DNA from: an uncultured delta proteobacterium
GTDB taxonomy: Bacteria; Desulfobacterota; Binatia; UBA9968
Length of the DNA stretch: 64,000 nt
Direction of reading: 5' to 3'
Assembly: GCA_963755715.1 (NCBI GenBank)
Contig: CAVWLW010000026.1
Coordinates: 32,001-96,000 of the forward strand
Shown: in pieces, positions 70-60,550 of the stretch
Layout: every line of letters begins with the position of its first letter
Numbering within the stretch: position 1 is the first letter of the stretch
Made by a program: the position numbers and the translations under genes
The notes under the pieces: generated by a model
Told to the model about the DNA's origin: nothing
The model's input: the letters and a program-made list of their open reading frames with translations, nothing else
The model's database searches: none

Positions 70-111
70 AAAGCGGCGGAAGGAATCGCCTTCCGCCGCT
101 TTTGTGTTTTT
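70..111 (+). terminator. Rho-independent terminator
   Basis: Perfect 14-bp stem AAAGCGGCGGAAGG/CCTTCCGCCGCTTT with a 5-nt loop and T-rich tail. It follows a probable gene end (...AALTPAPKKKVAV*, stop at 42-44). Confidence 0.85.
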
Positions 112-197: not shown

Positions 198-257
198 GCC
201 TAATCGCTCCGGTTCAGCGGCAGCCGCAGGGCCGTCCGCTGCAACCGGTTGTTAGAC
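198..257 (-). mobile_element. Integron attC site (terminal, R' imperfect)
   Basis: Minus strand: GTCTAAC-aaccg-GTTGCAGC...GCTGAAC-cggagc-G|ATTAGGC. R'', 5-nt spacer, L'', L' and 6-nt spacer are canonical; it starts 9 nt after the methyltransferase stop. Confidence 0.8.
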
Positions 258-266
258 CGCTTGATT

Positions 267-1124
267 TTAGGTGGTCGCCACTAGCAGTTCCTCTGAATTA
301 TTTGGCGGACGAAGGCCATCTGTCCTGCCCGCGAAGTAGCGTTGGGCAAGCGTAGCTGCCGATACGTGCTGGACCTCTCTAAAGCCGGCATCGCGGGCCA
401 GTGTCAGCATCTCTGTCGGCGTGAAGAAGCTGATGAAGGGCGTGCCGTTTGCTCGCGCCCCCGCTGCCGCTCGCTCAATCCCGGGACGCACCTCGGGGTC
501 CGCCAGCTCGATCGGAAGCATGAACGACATGGCGAGCGTGGAGCCCGGAGCGAGCGCCGCGACCTGGCGCAGCGTCGCCGCGATCGCGTCCTTGGTCAGG
601 TACATGCTGACACCGGTGGACGCCACGACCGCCGGCCGCCCGGAGTCGAAGCCCGACGCTGCCAGCCGCTCCCACCACGCGTCGCCTGCCTCGAAGTCGA
701 CCGGCACGAGCCGCAGGAACGACGGGATGCCGAGGCCGAGGTCGACGAGGCGCTGGCGCTTCCACGCCTGAGGGCCGGGCTGATCGATCTCGAACACGAG
801 CAGACGGGAGGCAAGCTCCGGCCGACGCTGGGCGAAGGTGTCCAGGCCCGCTCCGAGGATGACGTACTGCCCGACGCCACGGGCAGCTTGTTCCGCGACG
901 AGATCTTCGATGAAGCGGGCGCGGGCCACGATGGAGGCGCGGAAGGGCCGCGTGAACGGGCTCATGTCCGGACGGCTGCGCCATCCGTCGTCTGGAGCCG
1001 CCAGCTTCAAGCCGACTTCGTCTTCGAACACGTGCGGCGGCGAATCGACTTCTACGTGCAGCGCCCGCCACAAGGCGACCCGCACCGCCGTGTTGTCTGG
1101 CGCCGCCACTTGCTTATCATGCAT
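267..1124 (-). CDS. SAM-dependent methyltransferase (LCM/TIGR00027-like), gene cassette
   Basis: Motifs AR.RFIED, QYVILGAGLDT, EIDQP, VDF; bounded by GTTAGAC and GTCTAAC cassette ends. Confidence 0.9.
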   Translation of the reverse strand: MHDKQVAAPDNTAVRVALWRALHVEVDSPPHVFEDEVGLKLAAPDDGWRSRPDMSPFTRPFRASIVARARFIEDLVAEQAARGVGQYVILGAGLDTFAQRRPELASRLLVFEIDQPGPQAWKRQRLVDLGLGIPSFLRLVPVDFEAGDAWWERLAASGFDSGRPAVVASTGVSMYLTKDAIAATLRQVAALAPGSTLAMSFMLPIELADPEVRPGIERAAAGARANGTPFISFFTPTEMLTLARDAGFREVQHVSAATLAQRYFAGRTDGLRPPNNSEELLVATT

Positions 1125-1157
1125 GACGTTCTCTCTCTTGGTTTTCGGCTGTTGTCG

Positions 1158-1215
1158 GTCTAACGTCCGCGTTCAGCCGCCGCCGAAGGCGGTATGCTGC
1201 AACGCGTTGTTATGC
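1158..1215 (-). mobile_element. Integron attC site (58 bp)
   Basis: Minus strand: GCATAAC-aacgc-GTTGCAGC...GCTGAAC-gcggac-GTTAGAC; canonical R''/L''/L'/R' spacing with an extrahelical base. Confidence 0.9.
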
Positions 1216-1277
1216 GGTATTTGAATGGGTGTCGCACAAATACGTGCCCATCTTGCTGGGCTCCGATCGGACGTGCG

Positions 1278-2087
1278 CTATTTGCCCACGAATGTTGGAC
1301 GACGTTTCTCAACGAAGGCTGCTACACCTTCCTGAGCGTCAAGGGTTGGAACTATGCGCGCGAACGCCGCTTCTTCGATTGCAAGCCCATCGTCAATCGA
1401 CGCATCCATGCCGCGATGGATCGCTGAGAGTGCGGCCGCCAGTGTCAGTGGAGGTTTGGTGGCAAGCTCGTTCGCCAGCGCTATTGCCTCCCGAAGAAGA
1501 TCGGCGTCCGCGACGACACGGTTAATCAAGCCTAAGCTGGCGGCCTCTTTTGATGTGAACACGCGCCCGGTCAGAATCAATTCAATCGCCGCCTTCCGAC
1601 CGACATTGCGCGGCAAGCGCTGAGTACCGCCAAAGGCCGGCATTATCCCGATATTAATCTCGGCCTTCGAGAATGTAGCGGTCTCCGCCGCAAGCGCGAT
1701 GTGAGTGGATTCCGTCAGTTCGCATCCCCCGCCGAACGCAATTCCATTTACCGCCGCGATAATCGGCTTGGGGAAGGATTCCACGCGCCGGGTCATCTGA
1801 TGGCCAGGGCGCATGAAGTGCATAACGGCATCCGCTGGTCCAGCTCGCATATGTTTCTGAAACGCCGCGATGTCGGCTCCAGCACTGAACGCTCGGCCAG
1901 CTCCCGTTATCACAACGACCCGAACGGACGAGTCGAGTTCGATGCTATTCAACGCATTCATTATGCCAGCGATTAGCTCATTGCTAAGCGCGTTGAGCTT
2001 GTCGGGCCGGTTCAGCGTCAAGATCGCCACTGGGCCGCGATCCTCACGCAAGAGAATGGAGGACGATTCCTGCTTTGTCATGCTCAT
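1278..2087 (-). CDS. Enoyl-CoA hydratase/isomerase (crotonase), gene cassette
   Basis: Motifs LNRPDKLNAL, FSAGADI, AFGGGCEL, GGTQRLPR; cassette begins at G|TTATGC (2269-2263). Confidence 0.92.
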   Translation of the reverse strand: MSMTKQESSSILLREDRGPVAILTLNRPDKLNALSNELIAGIMNALNSIELDSSVRVVVITGAGRAFSAGADIAAFQKHMRAGPADAVMHFMRPGHQMTRRVESFPKPIIAAVNGIAFGGGCELTESTHIALAAETATFSKAEINIGIMPAFGGTQRLPRNVGRKAAIELILTGRVFTSKEAASLGLINRVVADADLLREAIALANELATKPPLTLAAALSAIHRGMDASIDDGLAIEEAAFARIVPTLDAQEGVAAFVEKRRPTFVGK

Positions 2088-2268
2088 GTTTCCTCGATGT
2101 TGCTTCGGGCTATAGGAATTTCAACTGCCACATTTTGCCAGTAACCAATGTATTTCCTGATATCGCATGCGGTCAACCGCTCGCATTTTCATGCGGACCA
2201 CAATTGGAGCTATCCACTTTCCGCCCTGGGCGACAGACTATTGCGAAATGAGTTTTCTTGCCGCATAA

Positions 2269-2619
2269 CTATTCCGCCAACAAATGATGCTCGTCCAATA
2301 CACACGAACCGAATCGACCCTGAAAGAGGTAGCCGCGCACCCCAGCGGAAAAATTTTTCATCCGTGTGTAGCGCCGGTGCGCTTCGCCGATCGCCCGCGC
2401 CAACAACCTTGCATCGCTCGCCACCACGATGAGATGGGTATGATTTGTCATCAAACACCAAGCCAGAACTTCAACTGAGAACCGCTTCAATTCCTCGGCC
2501 ATGAAACCGAGATGCGCAATTCGATCTCCATCGTCATCGAAGATCGGCATAGATCGTACGCCGCGCTGTGTGACGTGGTGGGGATACCCTGAGGCGACGA
2601 GTCGGGAAATACGCGCCAT
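2269..2619 (-). pseudogene. Truncated Y1/HUH REP-associated tyrosine transposase (RAYT-like)
   Basis: MAR..R, HHVTQRG, CLMTNHTHL (HUH), LFQGRF. It stops before the catalytic Tyr region (RY..RNP) exactly at the cassette boundary. Confidence 0.85.
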
Positions 2620-2839
2620 GCGCGAAACCTAATCGAGTCGAATATTCTCAGTCAAGAGAAAATTGGTATTGTGTCCTCGGAATTCTGCCCCTATCCCACT
2701 ATCGGCCCGCAGTCTCTCCCCGAGGCGACATCGCGTTTTAATATTCATAGTAAGCGGTCCGCTGGACTTTGAACACCTCGACCCCAGCGATCCGAGTGGC
2801 GACGCCTGTGTCTTCGTTCCTCCCGATAAATTTCCCATC

Positions 2840-8463: not shown

Positions 8464-9429
8464 CTATTCGAGCTGAATACGCGGGTCCAGCCACTTGTAA
8501 ACGATATCGACGAACAGATTGATGAATACATAAGTCACAGCGATGATGAGCACGCTTCCCTGGACAATCGGATAGTCGCGGGAGTAGACGCCTTCGATCA
8601 AGAGCCGGCCAACCCCCGGCCATGAGAACACGGTCTCAACGATAGTCGAGCCGCCGAGAATCCGGGCTGTTTGCAGTCCCACCACGGTTACGGCGGCGAT
8701 CAGCGAGTTCTTGAGAGCATGCTTAACTATGACCATCCGCGACGGCAGCCCCTTGGCCCACGCCGTGCGCACATAGTCTTGGCTAAGCTGCTCCAGCATC
8801 TCGGCGCGAATATAGCGCGTCAGCGGCGCGGCGAGATCCGTACCCATGACAATGGCGGGCAGGCAAGCATGCTGCAGGAAACGAGCCGGGTCGTCGAAGG
8901 GACTCGCATAGCCGATCGCCGGCAGCCAGCCCAGTATCACGCTGAATAAGACGATCAGCATCAACGCAAGCCAGAAGTTGGGCATGGCAATGCCCCAGAG
9001 AGCAAACCCCATCGCCGCGTAATCGGCGCCGGTGTTCTGGCGCATCGCCGCGATGACACCGGCCGGAATGGCAATCGCCACCCCGGTGAGCAAAGCGGCG
9101 ATTGCCAGATAGATCGTCGCCGGAAAGCGCTCAAAGATGGTCTCGAAAATCGGCCGGCGCGAACGCAGCGACAGGCCCATATCGCCTTGGACGATTCTCT
9201 TGAGCCAGCTCAGATATTGAACGTAGATGGGCCGGTCAAAGCCCAGTTGTTGTTGCAGCGCGCGATACTGCTCGTCATTGACGCGCGTGCGCTCTTCTGC
9301 GTCGATTCCCATCATCACCAGGACGGGATCGCCCGGAATAATGCGCACGATGAGAAACACCGCCATGCTGACCAGGATCAGCACCGGAATGAGCTGCCAG
9401 ATGCGCTGGACGATATAGCGGGCAAGCAT
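8464..9429 (-). CDS. ABC permease (OppB/DppB-like)
   Basis: PGDP, DYVRTAWAKG, ETVFSWPGVG, RDYPIVQG. Confidence 0.92.
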   Translation of the reverse strand: MLARYIVQRIWQLIPVLILVSMAVFLIVRIIPGDPVLVMMGIDAEERTRVNDEQYRALQQQLGFDRPIYVQYLSWLKRIVQGDMGLSLRSRRPIFETIFERFPATIYLAIAALLTGVAIAIPAGVIAAMRQNTGADYAAMGFALWGIAMPNFWLALMLIVLFSVILGWLPAIGYASPFDDPARFLQHACLPAIVMGTDLAAPLTRYIRAEMLEQLSQDYVRTAWAKGLPSRMVIVKHALKNSLIAAVTVVGLQTARILGGSTIVETVFSWPGVGRLLIEGVYSRDYPIVQGSVLIIAVTYVFINLFVDIVYKWLDPRIQLE

Positions 9430-31410: not shown

Positions 31411-32601
31411 ATGACGCTTGCCGCACCCAAGTCGGCCGCTTCCATGGCGACCGAAAGCGCTGTCAAGAGCAAGATCGCCGTCAGCCTGCGCGGACTTTGG
31501 AAAACTTATCCGGGCGGCACGAGCCCGGCGGTCAAAGATCTTTCCGTCGATGTGTTGGACGGCGAGATTCTTACACTCCTCGGCCCGAGCGGCTGCGGTA
31601 AGACGACCACACTGCGCATGGTGGCGGGCCTGGAGACTCCGGATGCCGGCGATATTTTTTTCGGCGAGGAAGCGGTGGTCATGACTTCGCGGCGCTTGAA
31701 TCTGCCGCCGAATAAACGCAACGTCGGCATGGTATTTCAAAGCTACGCGATCTGGCCGCACATGACGGTGGCGGAAAACGTCGCCTTTCCCCTCAAAGCA
31801 CGCAGATTTCCGAAGCGTGAAATTAAGGACCGCGTGCTGCGCGCTCTCGATCTCGTTGGTCTCGCGGGATTCGAGGATCGTCCGGGGCCACTCTTAAGCG
31901 GTGGGCAGCAACAGCGCGTCGCGTTTGCGCGCGCGCTGGTGACCGAACCGCGGGTATTGCTGTTAGACGAGCCTTTTAGCAACCTCGACGCCAAGCTGCG
32001 CGAGCAGATGCGCATCAGCGTCAAGCTTTTACAAAAACGACTCAACATCGCGATGCTGTTCGTCACCCACGATCAAATCGAGGCGCTGAGTTTATCGAAT
32101 CGCATCGCGTTGATGAATTTCGGCGTGGTGCAGCAGCAAGGCGATCCGCGCTTGCTTTACGAAGAACCGGTCAACGAATTCGTGCGCGACTTCGTCGGCA
32201 GAACCCTGCTCTTCAAAGGCAAAGTGCAAACGAGCAACCCGTCCGGCCAGATGGCGATCGCGCTGGCCGGCGCGCGCGACTGCATCGTCTTTGGACGCTG
32301 CTACAATCCCGGCGGCATGAAGACAGGTGAATCGGTTTATATCGGGGTCAGGCCCGAAGACGTGGAGATCCATCCGGCGCACGGCGCCGAGGCTCCATCG
32401 GGCATGATCGGCGGCAAGGTCGAGGCTACGTTGTTCGTCGGCGAGCGCATTGAGTATCAAGTCGAAGTCGACGGCCAGGGAGTCATCATGATTTATGGCG
32501 AACGCCACAAGCCGGTCGACGAGGGCAGCAAAGTTTGGTTAAAGTTGCGACCCGAAGGCCATACCGCGTGGGCATCGGATTGGTCGCACAAGGAAGAATA
32601 A
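31411..32601 (+). CDS. ABC ATPase (PotA/FbpC-like, with TOBE domain)
   Basis: GPSGCGKT, LSGGQQQR, LLDEPFSNLDA. Confidence 0.92.
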   Translation: MTLAAPKSAASMATESAVKSKIAVSLRGLWKTYPGGTSPAVKDLSVDVLDGEILTLLGPSGCGKTTTLRMVAGLETPDAGDIFFGEEAVVMTSRRLNLPPNKRNVGMVFQSYAIWPHMTVAENVAFPLKARRFPKREIKDRVLRALDLVGLAGFEDRPGPLLSGGQQQRVAFARALVTEPRVLLLDEPFSNLDAKLREQMRISVKLLQKRLNIAMLFVTHDQIEALSLSNRIALMNFGVVQQQGDPRLLYEEPVNEFVRDFVGRTLLFKGKVQTSNPSGQMAIALAGARDCIVFGRCYNPGGMKTGESVYIGVRPEDVEIHPAHGAEAPSGMIGGKVEATLFVGERIEYQVEVDGQGVIMIYGERHKPVDEGSKVWLKLRPEGHTAWASDWSHKEE

Positions 32602-37651: not shown

Positions 37652-37857
37652 GTGAAGGTACGGGATGCGATTCGTATGCTCGAAGCGGACGGATGGCGAC
37701 TCGTAGTAACGGAGTAACGGAGGGCAGTCACCGGCAGTTCAAGCACAATACAAAGCCGGGTCGCGTAACCGTTAGTGGTCATGCCGGTGACGACATGCCA
37801 AAGGGAACACTGGCTTCTGTACTGCGGCAAGCCGGCCTCAAAGGAGTGAGGCGATGA
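37652..37857 (+). pseudogene. hicA: HicA toxin disrupted by an 8-bp tandem duplication
   Basis: KVRDAIRMLEADGW...[AGTAACGG x2]...GSHRQFKH..KPGRVTV.GH..DD...GTL.S.LRQAGL; stop overlaps the hicB ATG. Confidence 0.88.
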
Positions 37858-38117
37858 AAAAGCTACAGTATTTGGTTCGTATCAATAAAGATCCCGATAG
37901 CGATTGGGGCGCCTCGGTGCCCGATCTCCCCGGCTGCGTTGCAACTGGAAAGACAATCGACTCTGCTCTTCGACGCATTCAAAGTGCCATAGCGCTCCAC
38001 ATCCGTGGCTTACGCGAGGACGGCATCAAACCACCACTTCCCCGCCAGCGTTCAATTGCTCCGAAACGCTCCCCACGACTGGTGGATTTTTACGCAACCG
38101 TCGAGGTTGCGGCTTAG
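37854..38117 (+). CDS. hicB: HicB-family antitoxin
   Basis: WGASVPDLPGC.ATGKT...A....AI.LH..GL.EDG. Confidence 0.88.
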   Translation: MKKLQYLVRINKDPDSDWGASVPDLPGCVATGKTIDSALRRIQSAIALHIRGLREDGIKPPLPRQRSIAPKRSPRLVDFYATVEVAA

Positions 38118-40793: not shown

Positions 40794-40920
40794 CTTTCCA
40801 GTCTCCTTTTCATCGACGATTTGAAATCGCTCACCTGTCAGTCAGGTTATACATTCAAAGGTGCTTCGACTAGACGGCAAATCTTGGAAACATTGTTCCG
40901 TCTAATGTAGAATCGCCGGC

Positions 40921-41810
40921 ATGGATCTCGACGGCATCGAGGTTTTCGTCAAAGTCGTTGAAGCCGGCAGCTTCAGCCAAGCGGCGAAGCTTCTCGGCAT
41001 GCCCAATTCAACGGTAAGCGCCAAACTTTCGGCGTTGGAGAAGCGGCTCGGTGTTACCCTGCTGCAGCGCGTCGACGCGCAAGTTGCGCGCAACGCCGGC
41101 GGGAGAGACTTACTTTCAGCAATGCGTTCAGGCTCTGGAACAATTGCAAGCGGCGGAAAGTGAATTGACCAAGCGCGCAACGCGAACCGCAGGGACTTCT
41201 CAGAGTCACGGCTCCCGCGGACATCGGCCACACTCTTCTCGCTACGCTGGTGCGCAGTTTTTTACAGCAGTACCCGAAAACCGAAGTCGAGCTCGTGGTC
41301 ACCAACCGCGTGCTCGACCTCATCGCCGAAGGTGTCGATCTGGCGATCAGAGCCGGCGAGCTCGCCGACTCGAGGCTCATCGCCAAGCGATTCTCCGTCG
41401 GCAACATCGGACTGTGGGCGAGTCCTGCTTATCTGAAGAAGCGCGGCATGCCTTCGCATCCGCGAGATCTGGCGCCACAGGAGTGCCTGCAATTCTCGCT
41501 ATTCAAAAACAACCGATTGGAACTGACCAATGGTAAGGACAGCGTCCGATTGGTTCCCGCGGGGCGGTTGCGCGCCGATGATTTCGAAGCGCTCAAAGCG
41601 TTCGCGCTTCTCGGCGAAGGCATTGTCTATCTGCCGAGTTTTATGTGCGCCGAGGAAGTGAAGCAGAGTCGACTCCAACGAGTGTTACCCGATTGGCATG
41701 GCACAGCGACAACCTTCTCGCTCGTCTACCCCGCGCAACGATTCGTCTCGCCCAAGGTGCGCGCCTTCATCACCGTCGCCGAAGATCTCTGGCGGCGGCA
41801 AAAGTTCTAA
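40921..41810 (+). CDS. LysR family regulator, two frameshifts
   Basis: HTH in ORF 40921-41163, linker in 41051-, C-domain in 41250-41810; inverted repeat TAGACGG/CCGTCTA at 40871-40904 upstream. Confidence 0.82.
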
Positions 41811-56838: not shown

Positions 56839-57113
56839 TGCTTTTCTTTCTGTGATCGCCGCGAGAAATTTCCGCGCCGATCGACACGCCCCTCGTACCA
56901 TAATCCGCGCGGCCGGAACAACTGCGCCGGAGCGCCGAACGATCGACTTGCGGCAAGCCTCAGGACCTTCTAAGAGAATTCGTCGCTGCAAGCTTCGCTG
57001 CCAACCTTTCCGCTTCGCCTATTGCAAACAGTGCAGCCGGTAAGATAAGAGGAAACGCGATCATCCGGCCCGCCGGCTGGATGCGAAATTCATCGTTACA
57101 TGCGCGCCCTCCC

Positions 57114-58109
57114 ATGAAGTCTCTTCGCGTTTCGCTGGCTTGCTGCCTCTTTGCCGCCGTTTTCGCCGCGCCGCTCGCGGCACAAGACAAGAAACTGACC
57201 CCAGTTTACCTCGGCTACTCGGCGATCAGCGGCAGCTTCGCGCCGCTCTGGGTTGGCTTCGATCAAGGCTTATTCGCGAAACACGGGCTTGATCTTAAGA
57301 TGGCCTACATCCAAGGCAACCGGGTGATGATGTCGGCGTTGACGGCCGGTGAGATTCACATTTATCAAGGCGGCGCCGAAGGTTTGATCCGGCTCGTATC
57401 GGGCGGCGGCGACGGTATTTTCATCGCTACTCAGTACAACGTCGTCGGCCACTACGTGCTGATGACCGATCCGAGCATCACCCGGCTCGAGGACCTGCGC
57501 GGCAAGAGGATCGCTCTCGATCCCACCAGCCCCACTTACGGCTACATGCTCAAAGTGTTGGAGCAGGTTGGTTTGAAAAAAGAAGATGTAAGCTTCGTGC
57601 AATTCGGCACCGTCGGCCAACCGGAGCGCGCCATGGCGGTCATGCGCAAGCAAGCCGCCGCGACGATTCTCACCGCGCCGAATACTTACGCCGCCGAGAA
57701 GCAAGGCTTAAGAAAATTTTCGATCATCCGCGAGCTCGGCATCCGTCAATTGATCACGGTCAGCGCGACGACGAAAAGATTTCTCCGGGAAAAACGCGAA
57801 GCCGCGGACGGGTATCTACGTGCCTACGTCGAAGCTCTCGCTTATGTAAAAGCCAATCGCGACGTCACAATGAAAGTGATCGCCAAATACACGCGCCAGC
57901 GCGAGCCGGACGTGCTCGCTAAATTCTACGATGAGATGGTGCCAGACCTGCCACGTATCCCCTACATCGACGAAGTCTCGGCGCGCGCCACCATTGACGC
58001 CATGCAGGCGCAGGGCCCGCCGCTGCCGAAAGTCGATGTGAAAGCGCTATACGACAATAGTCTGTTGAAGACGATCGAAGCGGATCTGGATCGGGATAAA
58101 CGGCGGTAG
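57114..58109 (+). CDS. NMT1/SsuA-like SBP (orphan)
   Basis: Signal peptide; APLWVG.DQGLF.KHGL, DLRGKRI. Confidence 0.88.
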   Translation: MKSLRVSLACCLFAAVFAAPLAAQDKKLTPVYLGYSAISGSFAPLWVGFDQGLFAKHGLDLKMAYIQGNRVMMSALTAGEIHIYQGGAEGLIRLVSGGGDGIFIATQYNVVGHYVLMTDPSITRLEDLRGKRIALDPTSPTYGYMLKVLEQVGLKKEDVSFVQFGTVGQPERAMAVMRKQAAATILTAPNTYAAEKQGLRKFSIIRELGIRQLITVSATTKRFLREKREAADGYLRAYVEALAYVKANRDVTMKVIAKYTRQREPDVLAKFYDEMVPDLPRIPYIDEVSARATIDAMQAQGPPLPKVDVKALYDNSLLKTIEADLDRDKRR

Positions 58110-58153: not shown

Positions 58154-58218
58154 GCTTAACGCGTTCGCATTGACCGGCGAGCCGCTTGCGGCGAGTCCGG
58201 TCGAATGCGTGGTTCGGC
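58154..58218 (-). mobile_element. Integron attC site (solo)
   Basis: Minus strand: GCCGAAC-cacgc-ATTCGACC-GGACTCGCCGCAAGCGGCTCGCC-GGTCAAT-gcgaac-G|CGTTAAGC. Confidence 0.75.
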
Positions 58219-58288
58219 CTCATGTGCTCACTTACGTCGATCGCGGCAAAGCGCGTGTTCATTAGGTCGCATGGAGGATGAGCTTCGT

Positions 58289-59100
58289 TTAGCCCGGTTC
58301 CATTCCCTGCGATTTGATGACCGGGATGGCAGTTGGACCGGTGAGGAATTTGATCAGATCTCGCGCCGCACCCGGCGCTTTCGAGTCTGCGCTAACTCCA
58401 GCGAGTAAACACGGTGTAGAACTGAATCTCGGGGGGAGCGGCCCGACCAGTTCGACGCCGGGTGTCGTCAAGATCTGCGTGATAACCACCACCCCGAGCT
58501 CGATTTCGCCCTTGGCGACAAGTTCGGAAACGATATCGGAAGTCCGGTATCGTCACTTTCGACTTGATCGCATCCGCAATTCCAAGCCGATCGACCAGCT
58601 GCGGCACTCCGCCGCTCGGGAGGTAGCCGATCGATTTGGCATTGAGCAGCGCACGCTTGAATGCCTCGACCGAGCTGATGTCAGGTTTGGGCGCGCCCGC
58701 GCGCACCCCCACGCCAATTCCCGAGCGCACGAGATTGGTGCGCGTGTCGGCAATGACCTTGCCGTCTTTGATCAAGCCCGTCGATAGTAGGCGGCGGACT
58801 GACGAAAACGTCAAACGGCTCGCCGGCATTAATTTGCTTTACGAAGTTGGGGCTGAAGCCGGAGATCACGTTGAGCTTGTGCCCGGTTGTGCGCTCGAAT
58901 TCAGGCCCGATCTTGTCCAACACGGTCGCGATCGCTCTAGAGGTAAAGACCTTGAGTTCAGCGGCGTTGGCAGCACTGCGGTGAGTCGAAATGGTCACAA
59001 GGAAGAAAATCGTCGACACTCTCACAACCGAAACAGCCTTTGTGAACAGCCGCTCGGGCGTCGTCGAAATACCGATCCCTGCGCAAGAATTACTCAACAT
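58289..59100 (-). CDS. ModA-like (SBP_bac_11) substrate-binding protein, frameshifted; cassette cargo
   Basis: FERTTGHKL, GIGVGVRAGAPKPDISS.EAFKRALL.AKSI, GVELVGPLP; three ORF pieces; GTTAGGC core about 20 nt upstream of the ATG. Confidence 0.78.
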
Positions 59101-59437
59101 GACTTCCTCGTAAGGCCCAGCCTAACTATTAAGTGAGCCGCCGTAGGCAGCGACAATTACTGGTCGGCTTATCCCGGCGACGCCTAGGACAATAAAGGAT
59201 CAAATCGTATGCAATATCCATCAGCTAACAGAGCGTTGTCAACATTAGTATTCCGCCAAAAGCCGACCGGCACGGCGGCTTATCTCCCTAACAACTCGCA
59301 GTCTATCTCCGCGGCTTGCTTGGCTGACGCCATCCCGTCACAAACGATACCTCTGCCTCCTCGGTTTAAATATTGTGGTGCTGTCTGCGATGCCGAACGG
59401 TGAGAGAGATTCGTCCTGAACCGAACACCGCGCGACT

Positions 59438-60550
59438 TTACGAAGAATGTGCCTCAGCCCTGCGCTGCTCGATCGAATAGCGTACCAAGGCGGCGTAGCG
59501 GTAAACGACGTGGGCGAACTTTCCATAGGGCAGCGTAATGAATAGTCCCGCGACGATACCTAAGTGAATGACCAAAAGCGTTCCCATCGCCGCGGTTTCG
59601 CGGAACACGAGCAGCACAAGACCGGTGAAGCTGGTGAGAAACAGCAGCACGAGAAATGCTACGTCCATGTTCAACATGCTTGCATCCGCCGGTGCGCGAT
59701 CGCTTTTCCACTTTAAGTAAAGCAGGCCCACGGTGCCGATCAGTAAACCGACGCCGCCGACGGTGCCGAGAACGACCGGCGCGCTAAAATACGGATACGG
59801 CGCCTGCCAATCAAGAAAGTGATCGTAAAACGCCGCGATGCTGGTAGCGGCGAAGTCGAGCAGAAAGCCGTAGAAGACCAGATGGTGGTACCACATTCGC
59901 GCGCGTGAAAAATTTTCCGCGGGGTAATTGCAGCCGGCGCCGCCGCCTTTCATATAGGCGAGGCCGAAAGCGTCTTTGGTCGCGCGCCACAGAGCGGCGG
60001 GATCGATTAGCGCAGAAATTGGTCCCTGAGTTTCGCGCCAAAAGCGGACCGCGCCGATGATGAAAACCGTCAAACCATAGAGCGCGATCAGCGACGGTGG
60101 CACGGTCATGGCGACAAACGGCACGACGCGGTAAAACGTCCCTTCTCCGAGATGGGTAGCGAATAGAACATTAGGGCCTTGGAACAAAAGTACGAGCGCG
60201 AGAATAATGATTATCGACGCGACGGTAATCGCACTCACCGCCAACACGTTGCGTTTGAACAGAACCGAAAGAAGCGCCGGCCAGGTGAACTCCCGATAAG
60301 TATCGGCGCGCAGCTCGGACATGAGTTTCGGAATATTGACGCCGAACTCATGCGGCGGCGCGTACTGGCAGGCGTAATAACAGTCGCGGCAGTCGAAACA
60401 GAGATTCGCTAGATAGGTCAGATCGGCTTTGGTAAAAACGCGGCGCTGTTCCATCGCCGGAAAAACCGCGCAGTATCCTTCGCAGTAACGGCAAGCATTG
60501 CAGATCGTCATCTGCCGCGCGCCGTCCTTTACCAGATCAAAATCCGGCAC
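59438..60550 (-). CDS. tcuB: Tricarballylate utilization 4Fe-4S membrane protein
   Basis: CNACRYCEGYCAVF, CFDCRDCYYACQYAPPHEF, PYGKFAH. Confidence 0.92.
   Translation of the reverse strand: MPDFDLVKDGARQMTICNACRYCEGYCAVFPAMEQRRVFTKADLTYLANLCFDCRDCYYACQYAPPHEFGVNIPKLMSELRADTYREFTWPALLSVLFKRNVLAVSAITVASIIIILALVLLFQGPNVLFATHLGEGTFYRVVPFVAMTVPPSLIALYGLTVFIIGAVRFWRETQGPISALIDPAALWRATKDAFGLAYMKGGGAGCNYPAENFSRARMWYHHLVFYGFLLDFAATSIAAFYDHFLDWQAPYPYFSAPVVLGTVGGVGLLIGTVGLLYLKWKSDRAPADASMLNMDVAFLVLLFLTSFTGLVLLVFRETAAMGTLLVIHLGIVAGLFITLPYGKFAHVVYRYAALVRYSIEQRRAEAHSS

Follow-up and report, generated by a model that had tools for sequence, protein, structure and literature searches.

How did two gene cassettes of the integron type come to stand in a bacterial chromosome with no working integrase beside them? 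In this study, we analyzed a stretch of 64,000 nucleotides (hereafter the window, numbered from its first base) from an uncultured delta proteobacterium (GTDB lineage Bacteria; Desulfobacterota; Binatia; UBA9968), which corresponds to positions 32,001 to 96,000 of the forward strand of contig CAVWLW010000026.1 in the GenBank assembly GCA_963755715.1. Near its start, the window holds two genuine integron cassettes in tandem, each made of a gene and its own attC hairpin site, the first encoding a crotonase and the second a methyltransferase. The locus is a CALIN, that is, clustered attC sites without a working integrase, and it is a further case of an already catalogued kind. With a probability of roughly 0.6, it would represent a decayed resident chromosomal integron whose integrase gene, intI, was co-oriented with the cassettes. 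The array is composed as follows, in its own direction of reading:

1164 to 2268, minus strand: crotonase cassette, 1105 bp, whose start TTATGCGG at 2268 complements its own R'' region CCGCATAA
2088 to 2268, minus strand: leader borne by the crotonase cassette, 181 nt, GC 0.475, with a promoter-like match at 2176-2147
1278 to 2087, minus strand: crotonase open reading frame (ORF), 269 aa, enoyl-CoA hydratase/isomerase family (ECH_1, E 4.5e-66)
1158 to 1215, minus strand: attC_B, the site of the crotonase cassette, with R'' GCATAAC (1215-1209), L'' GTTGCAGC (1203-1196), L' GCTGAAC (1177-1171) and R' GTTAGAC (1164-1158); crossover between 1164 and 1163
205 to 1163, minus strand: methyltransferase cassette, 959 bp, with start TTAGACCG at 1163 and last base G at 205
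267 to 1124, minus strand: S-adenosylmethionine-dependent methyltransferase ORF, 285 aa (Pfam LCM, E 1.8e-49; NCBIfam TIGR00027, 164.6 bits, cutoff 93.55)
198 to 257, minus strand: attC_A, the site of the methyltransferase cassette, with R'' GTCTAAC (257-251), spacer (250-246), L'' GTTGCAGC (245-238), loop (237-219), L' GCTGAAC (218-212), spacer (211-206), crossover G (205), A (204) and TTAGGC (203-198)

First, the boundaries of both cassettes could be defined from their swapped ends (TTATGCGG/CCGCATAA for the crotonase and TTAGACCG/CGGTCTAA for the methyltransferase), the start of each being the exact complement of its own R'' region. The sequence CCGCATAAC lies at 1209-1217 (minus) and 2261-2269 (plus), and CGGTCTAAC at 251-259 (minus) and 1156-1164 (plus), with no other copies of either in the window; the chance of meeting the crotonase 9-mer within about 600 nt upstream of the gene was estimated at about 0.002. 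An earlier note on this DNA, made from the letters alone, had described a 9-bp complementarity between the ends of each cassette, excisable-type cassettes in tandem on the minus strand and a crotonase cassette with about 180 bp of its own leader. All three descriptions hold: each 9-mer is found only in its two expected places, the swapped ends and the attC models below agree, and the leader measures 181 nt.

Second, the two hairpins belong to a widespread attC family. Both share the layout RYYYAAC, 5 nt, GTTGCAGC, loop, GCTGAAC, 6 nt, G, and attC_A and attC_B are 78% identical; the R''/R' cores are present in both, with one extra A in the R' of attC_A and one non-pyrimidine in the R'' of attC_B (GCATAAC). 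Two copies of the pattern TAAC-N5-GTTGCAGC-N10-40-GCTGAAC are present in the window (212-254 and 1171-1212, both minus), and 100 shuffles yielded none. The same pattern, scanned over genome contigs, was found in at least 122 stretches from many phyla, with at least 129 distinct matches. Among the matches listed, 95 have GTT 5-8 nt past GCTGAAC (exactly 6 nt in 70 of the 95), and the commonest ends were R'' GCCTAAC (35) and R' GTTAGGC (27 of the 95 sites). A match was also present in a Heimdallarchaeota metagenome-assembled genome (MAG; locus L101).

Two covariance models were searched against the window. R1 derives from 95 attC sites in other genomes that match the pattern and is circular by construction; its minus-strand scores were 63.5 bits (198-257) and 54.4 bits (1158-1215). 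R2, which is only partly independent, was built from 63 of the 65 array-neighbour attC sites in which the pattern is not matched (one omitted neighbour is 130 nt long and the other is cut by a contig end), and scored 57.2 and 44.8 bits, respectively. On the plus strand the same sites reached 15.2 and 10.8 bits under R2, and no more than 17 bits with either model. The coordinates and strand given for the two attC sites in the earlier note were exact. A search of 78 sources with R1 yielded 179 sites at E <= 0.001, mostly in co-oriented arrays, and the recombinase ORFs picked by motif in the fetched loci were all (six of six) TIGR02249 integron integrases (IntI). A hidden Markov model (HMM) built from these six detected IntI or its fragments in 11 contigs, in nine of which it is divergent from the attC top strand and in two co-oriented (L024 and L017); these IntI served to verify the orientation of the models.

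In the attC family, 93.7% of the helix cells are paired, versus 77.3% after shuffling and 26-50% with the pairing partner slid, and both sides have changed in 10 of the 15 pairs; this covariation supports the family helix. The plus-strand (bottom) DNA folds with a bulge in GCTG[C]AAC, on the arm opposite AAC, followed by six pairs and then by an unpaired T. Extrahelical bases opposite the bottom-strand AAC with a 6-bp stem between them are the rule in the excerpt of PMC5027507 used here. The same excerpt gives G as the usual extrahelical base inside the bottom strand's L'', and this base is C in both attC_A and attC_B. The top-strand bulge base of the 63 neighbouring sites from other genomes is G in 52, C in seven, T in three and A in one, in a sample skewed by the model with which they were detected. 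Folding of the bottom strands, a check suggested earlier, gave structures only moderately better than shuffles (z of -1.9 and -2.6). A scan of Rfam, which holds no attC family, returned only two chance matches (Xoo2, E 0.31; CRISPR-DR52, E 2.1). A scan for general attC-like geometry was non-discriminating (13 rows in the window versus 4-13 in 20 block shuffles); its perfect matches were 1158-1215 and 58154-58218 only, attC_A being missed because of its extra A.

Third, the decisive evidence for the methyltransferase cassette is a second copy in a Methylococcaceae MAG (L035), with 88% nucleotide identity (872 of 987 aligned positions), which sits behind an unrelated, longer attC and ahead of different DNA. 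The homology takes in attC_A and breaks off at the distal crossover G and the TTAGGC common to both; proximally it extends another 13 nt, into the generic L'-spacer of an otherwise unrelated preceding attC. The orientation is therefore fixed: the gene travels with its downstream attC. More distant homologs of the methyltransferase (76% identity) are carried by Caballeronia and Variovorax plasmids. A plasmid search matched 47 records, all via the methyltransferase gene (72-77% identity), and no attC was present in the two records inspected (Caballeronia and Variovorax). The methyltransferase is compositionally foreign, with a GC content of 0.675 and a GC content at third codon positions (GC3) of 0.80, versus 0.572+-0.018 and 0.698+-0.043 for 22 other genes. 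The composition of the crotonase is not foreign (GC 0.575, GC3 0.63), and no second copy of its cassette came to light. The best match of the crotonase ORF was PRK05980 at 332 bits, under the 375-bit equivalog cutoff of that model, and its leader contains a sigma-70-like match, TTGACC-18-TACATT (2176-2147), by consensus only.

A 56-nt attC core with at most four mismatches to that of L035 was observed in 17 fetched loci (L024, L034, L035, L040, L049, L050, L055, L070, L077, L078, L079, L085, L089, L093, L094, L096 and L099), which by title come from Cyanobium, Chloroflexaceae, Methylococcaceae, Haliangiales, Bryobacteraceae, Halomonas, Eisenbacteria, Anaerolineales, Schekmanbacteria, Planctomycetota, Acidobacteriota and others. 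This shared core suggests that cassettes may have moved across phyla. In a protein collection, the exact crotonase was filed in the 90% cluster of the methyltransferase (1152 members, represented by a 285-aa methyltransferase; one named member is from a Rokubacteria MAG). This does not reflect similarity between the two and may be a clustering artefact or may come from contigs that read both as one protein. The figure of 1152 was used for neither gene, and only implies that the methyltransferase has many close relatives. Five contigs, the longest of 307,495 bp, encode the identical methyltransferase.

We then ask where the integrase is. On the upstream side of the array the following features were found:

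2269 to 2619, minus strand: Y1 transposase-like gene (IS200-like or REP-associated tyrosine transposase (RAYT)-like, REP being repetitive extragenic palindromic), 3'-truncated, 116 aa, with weak profile matches below cutoffs
2619 to 2840, minus reading: gap of 220 nt between the Y1 ORF (2619) and the end of an amidohydrolase gene (2840)
2745 to 2792, minus strand: probable relic of an intI 3' end, encoding DRWGRGVQSPADRLL and then a stop
4111 to 2840 and 5305 to 4112, minus strand: two amidohydrolase genes

The two attC sites lie 958 nt apart with no intI across the 62 kb on the upstream side, as in a CALIN, and an intI next to the array, which a complete integron would have, is represented by a tail relic of about 15 codons only. 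No integrase ORF was present among the 63 distinct window ORFs scanned. A tblastn search with six IntI proteins detected no intact integrase in the window (best E 0.024), and the IntI HMM found nothing in its six-frame segments (best E 1.4). Nothing attC-like was observed in 2230-2900 (R2 best 1.7 bits) and no attI was recognisable there, though attI sites are not conserved. Where a complete integron would have its cassette promoter (Pc) upstream of the first cassette, the only promoter-like match here sits inside the crotonase leader.

The tail relic came from a tblastn match of the L020 IntI C-terminus at 2792-2751 (minus), where 10 of 14 residues are identical. The window frame reads DRWGRGVQSPADRLL and then a stop, and its L020 counterpart NRGGRGVVSPLDRL and a stop. 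Six-frame translation of 1.15 Mb contains the motif [GA]V.SP[LA]D six times; five of these are at IntI C-termini and the sixth is 2792-2745. With a position-specific scoring matrix (PSSM) made from eight IntI tails, the relic scores 27.6, over every non-IntI position among 2.29 million (the next being 23.2) and over two of the tails used for training. The only higher-scoring hit outside the training set lies in L033; it reads ...MIYTHVLQRGGLVVRSPLD and is in turn the truncated tail of an integrase next to an array. On the basis of these comparisons, 2792-2745 (minus) is probably a relic of the C-terminal tail of an integron integrase. It points in the direction of the cassettes, and its end lies some 480 bp upstream of the first cassette; in L024, whose integron is co-oriented, 179 nt separate the intI stop from the first cassette. 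In L033 (Candidatus Thermoflexus japonica), only an integrase tail is present (8498-8752, minus), directly abutting the first cassette (alpha/beta hydrolase) of an attC array. Prompted by short matches to L-box-like words, we also considered the relic as a collapsed attC. This candidate was rejected, as R2 gave 1.7 bits and no attC of the loci scores high in the tail PSSM. The earlier note had stated that no intI or recognisable attI lies upstream, which stands for a functional intI and for attI and has to be amended for the C-terminal relic.

The Y1 gene fills most of the distance between relic and array. The G of its TAG stop is the crossover G of the first cassette, and among its homologs (1097 at E <= 0.001) the longer ones (P0002 and P0058 being long forms) run on with ...LLAAARYVELNPV...YPWSSAR... 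for about 70-100 further residues. The homology ends at 2275, six bases ahead of the cassette, and the missing C-terminal part is nowhere else in the window. Other samples (P0003, P0053, P0122 and P0124) contain the truncated allele with its ...LLAE end again, at about 5% divergence, and P0015 fuses Y1 residues 1-86 to the translated crotonase leader. The junction between Y1 and the cassette is therefore old and shared, and no fresh insertion.

Based on these data, a history may be proposed. The cassettes would have been assembled through recombination by IntI at G|TT within attC sites, as argued by the attC and cassette anatomy together with the independent copy in L035, and the array would now be mobile only if IntI were supplied from elsewhere. 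The resident intI would have pointed the same way as the cassettes and been deleted to its last 15 codons or so, now abutting the end of the amidohydrolase gene, and the attI region would have been remodelled and now hold the 3'-truncated RAYT-like Y1 gene. The promoter-like site of the leader may drive the crotonase, with the methyltransferase, 39 nt past attC_B, presumably co-transcribed through that site. It is the co-oriented relic upstream that makes decay of a resident integron the favoured origin, at the probability given above. The earlier note had instead suggested delivery of the array in trans, from which the relic, upstream and in the same orientation, leads us to depart.

Several points weigh against resident decay. 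The relic is only about 15 codons long, and the IntI HMM gives it 1.0 bit (E 22), as expected from so few residues. A blastn-short search of 2620-2860 against the loci found no nucleotide similarity to intI ends, and the motif test was devised after the hit had been seen. An intI co-oriented with its cassettes is the rarer arrangement (2 of 11 contigs), the search of 2230-2900 that showed no attC remnant (best 1.7 bits) showed no recognisable attI either, and this origin does not account for the Y1 gene that separates relic and array. The distal G|AT junction is what insertion at a non-classical genomic site (attG) would leave, and a lone cassette at 58 kb indicates that non-attI insertion has occurred in this genome. 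Our view covers the 64-kb window only, which begins 197 nt past the array.

That lone cassette is described by two further features:

58154 to 58218, minus strand: third attC, with R'' GCCGAAC, L'' ATTCGACC, L' GGTCAAT and R' GTTAAGC
58160 to 59397, minus strand: lone cassette, 1238 bp, with a broken SBP_bac_11 gene and the start G|TTCGGC, the G being at 59398

The third attC scored 53.9 bits with R2 (E 1.6e-9) and 30.5 bits with R1, and the start of the cassette, G|TTCGGC, complements its own R''. The SBP_bac_11 gene is broken into three frames. The cassette lies between the convergent genes 57081-58109 (plus) and 59438-60550 (minus), and its junctions imply a GTT target. It is of the SALIN type, i.e., a single attC without integrase. 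This cassette, which is 56 kb away from the array, may have been placed at its GTT, a non-attI site, by the same integrase while that was alive.

The best-surviving alternative, which we regard as rather unlikely, is that a two-cassette circle, or cassettes one after another, were inserted in trans at an attG site, where the target TAG|ATT gave the G|AT scar, so that the cassette-free sequence would run ...GGCGGAATAG|ATTAGGCGTTAGG... Past the crossover G (205) of attC_A come A (204) and then TTAGGC (203-198), so the G|AT continuation that the earlier note reported can be read directly. The reconstructed target GAT matches 5'-GWT-3', the attG consensus in the excerpt of bioRxiv 10.1101/2022.09.11.507474 used here, where small CALINs are also proposed to arise in this way and 1362 of the 2961 RefSeq CALINs have two cassettes. 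The lone cassette, between convergent genes and with a GTT target, would fit such a process, as would the lack of any attI or attC remnant upstream of the first cassette. In other genomes, too, attC sites of this family have bases other than TT after the G (e.g., L060 and L020). However, GWT is expected at one in eight positions after any G, and a single A added within GTTAGGC, the R' seen most often in the family (27 of 95 sites), accounts for G|AT just as well. The bases past that A are exactly TTAGGC, which a random target would match about once in 4096, and L035 has G|TTAGGC at the corresponding position of attC_A. The integrase tail 480 bp upstream also speaks against this reading. Moreover, at least four genes of the window are split by frameshifts, including:

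6428-6024 and 6055-5453: oligopeptide ATP-binding cassette (ABC) transporter ATPase, split by a frameshift or gap
26605-25634 and 40906-41810: two LysR regulators, split likewise, with helix-turn-helix and substrate domains in separate frames
58160-59397: the SBP_bac_11 solute-binding gene of the lone cassette, in three frames

These split genes reflect either many pseudogenes or indel errors of the assembly, and make a one-base insertion or an assembly error plausible. A single extra A therefore carries little weight, and the G|AT junction is weak evidence. A combined reading is tentative: the lone cassette at its GTT 56 kb away and the G|AT of the array could be natural scars of non-attI dispersal, perhaps both made by the since-decayed, co-oriented resident integrase, with an attC type that has C as its L'' extrahelical base and is near-identical in 17 loci.

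It is improbable that the block of integrase tail, Y1 gene and two cassettes was moved as a unit from an integron elsewhere, whether by a Y1/HUH transposase or by illegitimate or homologous recombination. A gene of a transposase family does lie inside the block, and the same truncated Y1 allele is seen in several samples, as though the unit were repeated. However, this gene is without the C-terminal part that its homologs have past ...LLA, neither terminal hairpins nor inverted repeats delimit the block, and no Y1 homolog was found near the attC arrays of the fetched loci. An 8-nt direct repeat, CGATTAGG, at 2635-2628 and 206-199 (minus), flanks the Y1 gene and both cassettes. Such a pair is ordinary (57 of 100 window shuffles hold at least two copies), and we rejected it as a meaningful boundary and treated it as chance. 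Finally, we reject the reading of the hairpins as REP-like palindromes of the neighbouring RAYT-like ORF, whose adjacency and match (E 2.8e-5, below cutoff) are all that recommend it, because they fall in the attC family of arrays beside TIGR02249 integrases, have RYYYAAC/GTTRRRY cores with swapped ends, recur with the L035 cassette where there is no Y1 gene, and have no counterpart upstream of the Y1 ORF, as REPs flanking a RAYT gene, often in inverted pairs, would have.

Past the distal end of the array, the model search found nothing attC-like in 1-200 (197 nt past the array), and one feature was present:

70 to 102, plus strand: terminator-like 14-bp stem followed by a T-run, serving a convergent plus-strand gene that ends within the first 42 nt of the window

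This terminator suggests that a convergent host gene lies beyond the array. The genome around the array is rich in Amidohydro_2 enzymes (six ORFs, 2840-58109) and, within the same range, contains eight ORFs for NMT1/THI5-like solute-binding proteins together with ABC transporters; a HicB-like antitoxin ORF is located at 37854-38117.

Taken together, the locus is a clean natural example of integron cassettes stranded in a chromosome. The mobility of the methyltransferase cassette is proven by its second copy in another genome, and the other is linked with an integrase and a transposase that are both dead. Loci of this sort bear on what share of small CALINs comes from decayed integrons and what share from attG insertions, a question raised in the excerpt of bioRxiv 10.1101/2022.09.11.507474. 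CALINs and SALINs have already been catalogued in their thousands (2961 and 3400 in RefSeq, according to the same excerpt), and the window locus adds a case and no principle; its cassette genes are ordinary metabolic enzymes with no resistance or virulence function.

Compared with known systems, the locus resembles the co-oriented sedentary chromosomal integrons L024 (Cyanobium MAG) and L017 (Thermoanaerobaculia MAG), in which the integrase stop faces the cassettes and the attC sites are of the same family; in the window, by contrast, some 15 codons are left of the integrase, most of the 480 bp ahead of the first cassette is taken up by a truncated Y1 gene, and no attI is recognisable. Integrons of the 'inverted-integrase' type have been described in the literature. 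The attC sites share with those of canonical mobile integrons, as presented in the PMC5027507 excerpt, the R and L boxes, a central spacer of 5 and 6 unpaired nt, a short terminal loop, and extrahelical bases opposite the bottom-strand AAC with a 6-bp stem between them, the distal one being T; they differ in having C, instead of the usual G, as the extrahelical base of L'' on the bottom strand. The lone cassette is like SALINs and attG-inserted cassettes in that it occupies an intergenic GTT with no other att site near, and the distal G|AT of the array likewise fits GWT; attG insertion has been demonstrated by experiment in E. coli and V. cholerae, according to the excerpt of bioRxiv 10.1101/2022.09.11.507474, whereas here it would be read from junctions alone. 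Earlier work cited in that excerpt placed 95% of CALINs away from recognisable intI pseudogenes. The array is like other CALINs in its two co-oriented attC sites about 960 bp apart, with one gene each and no integrase gene nearby, and unlike the usual ones in its short intI 3' relic and its cassettes of metabolic enzymes.

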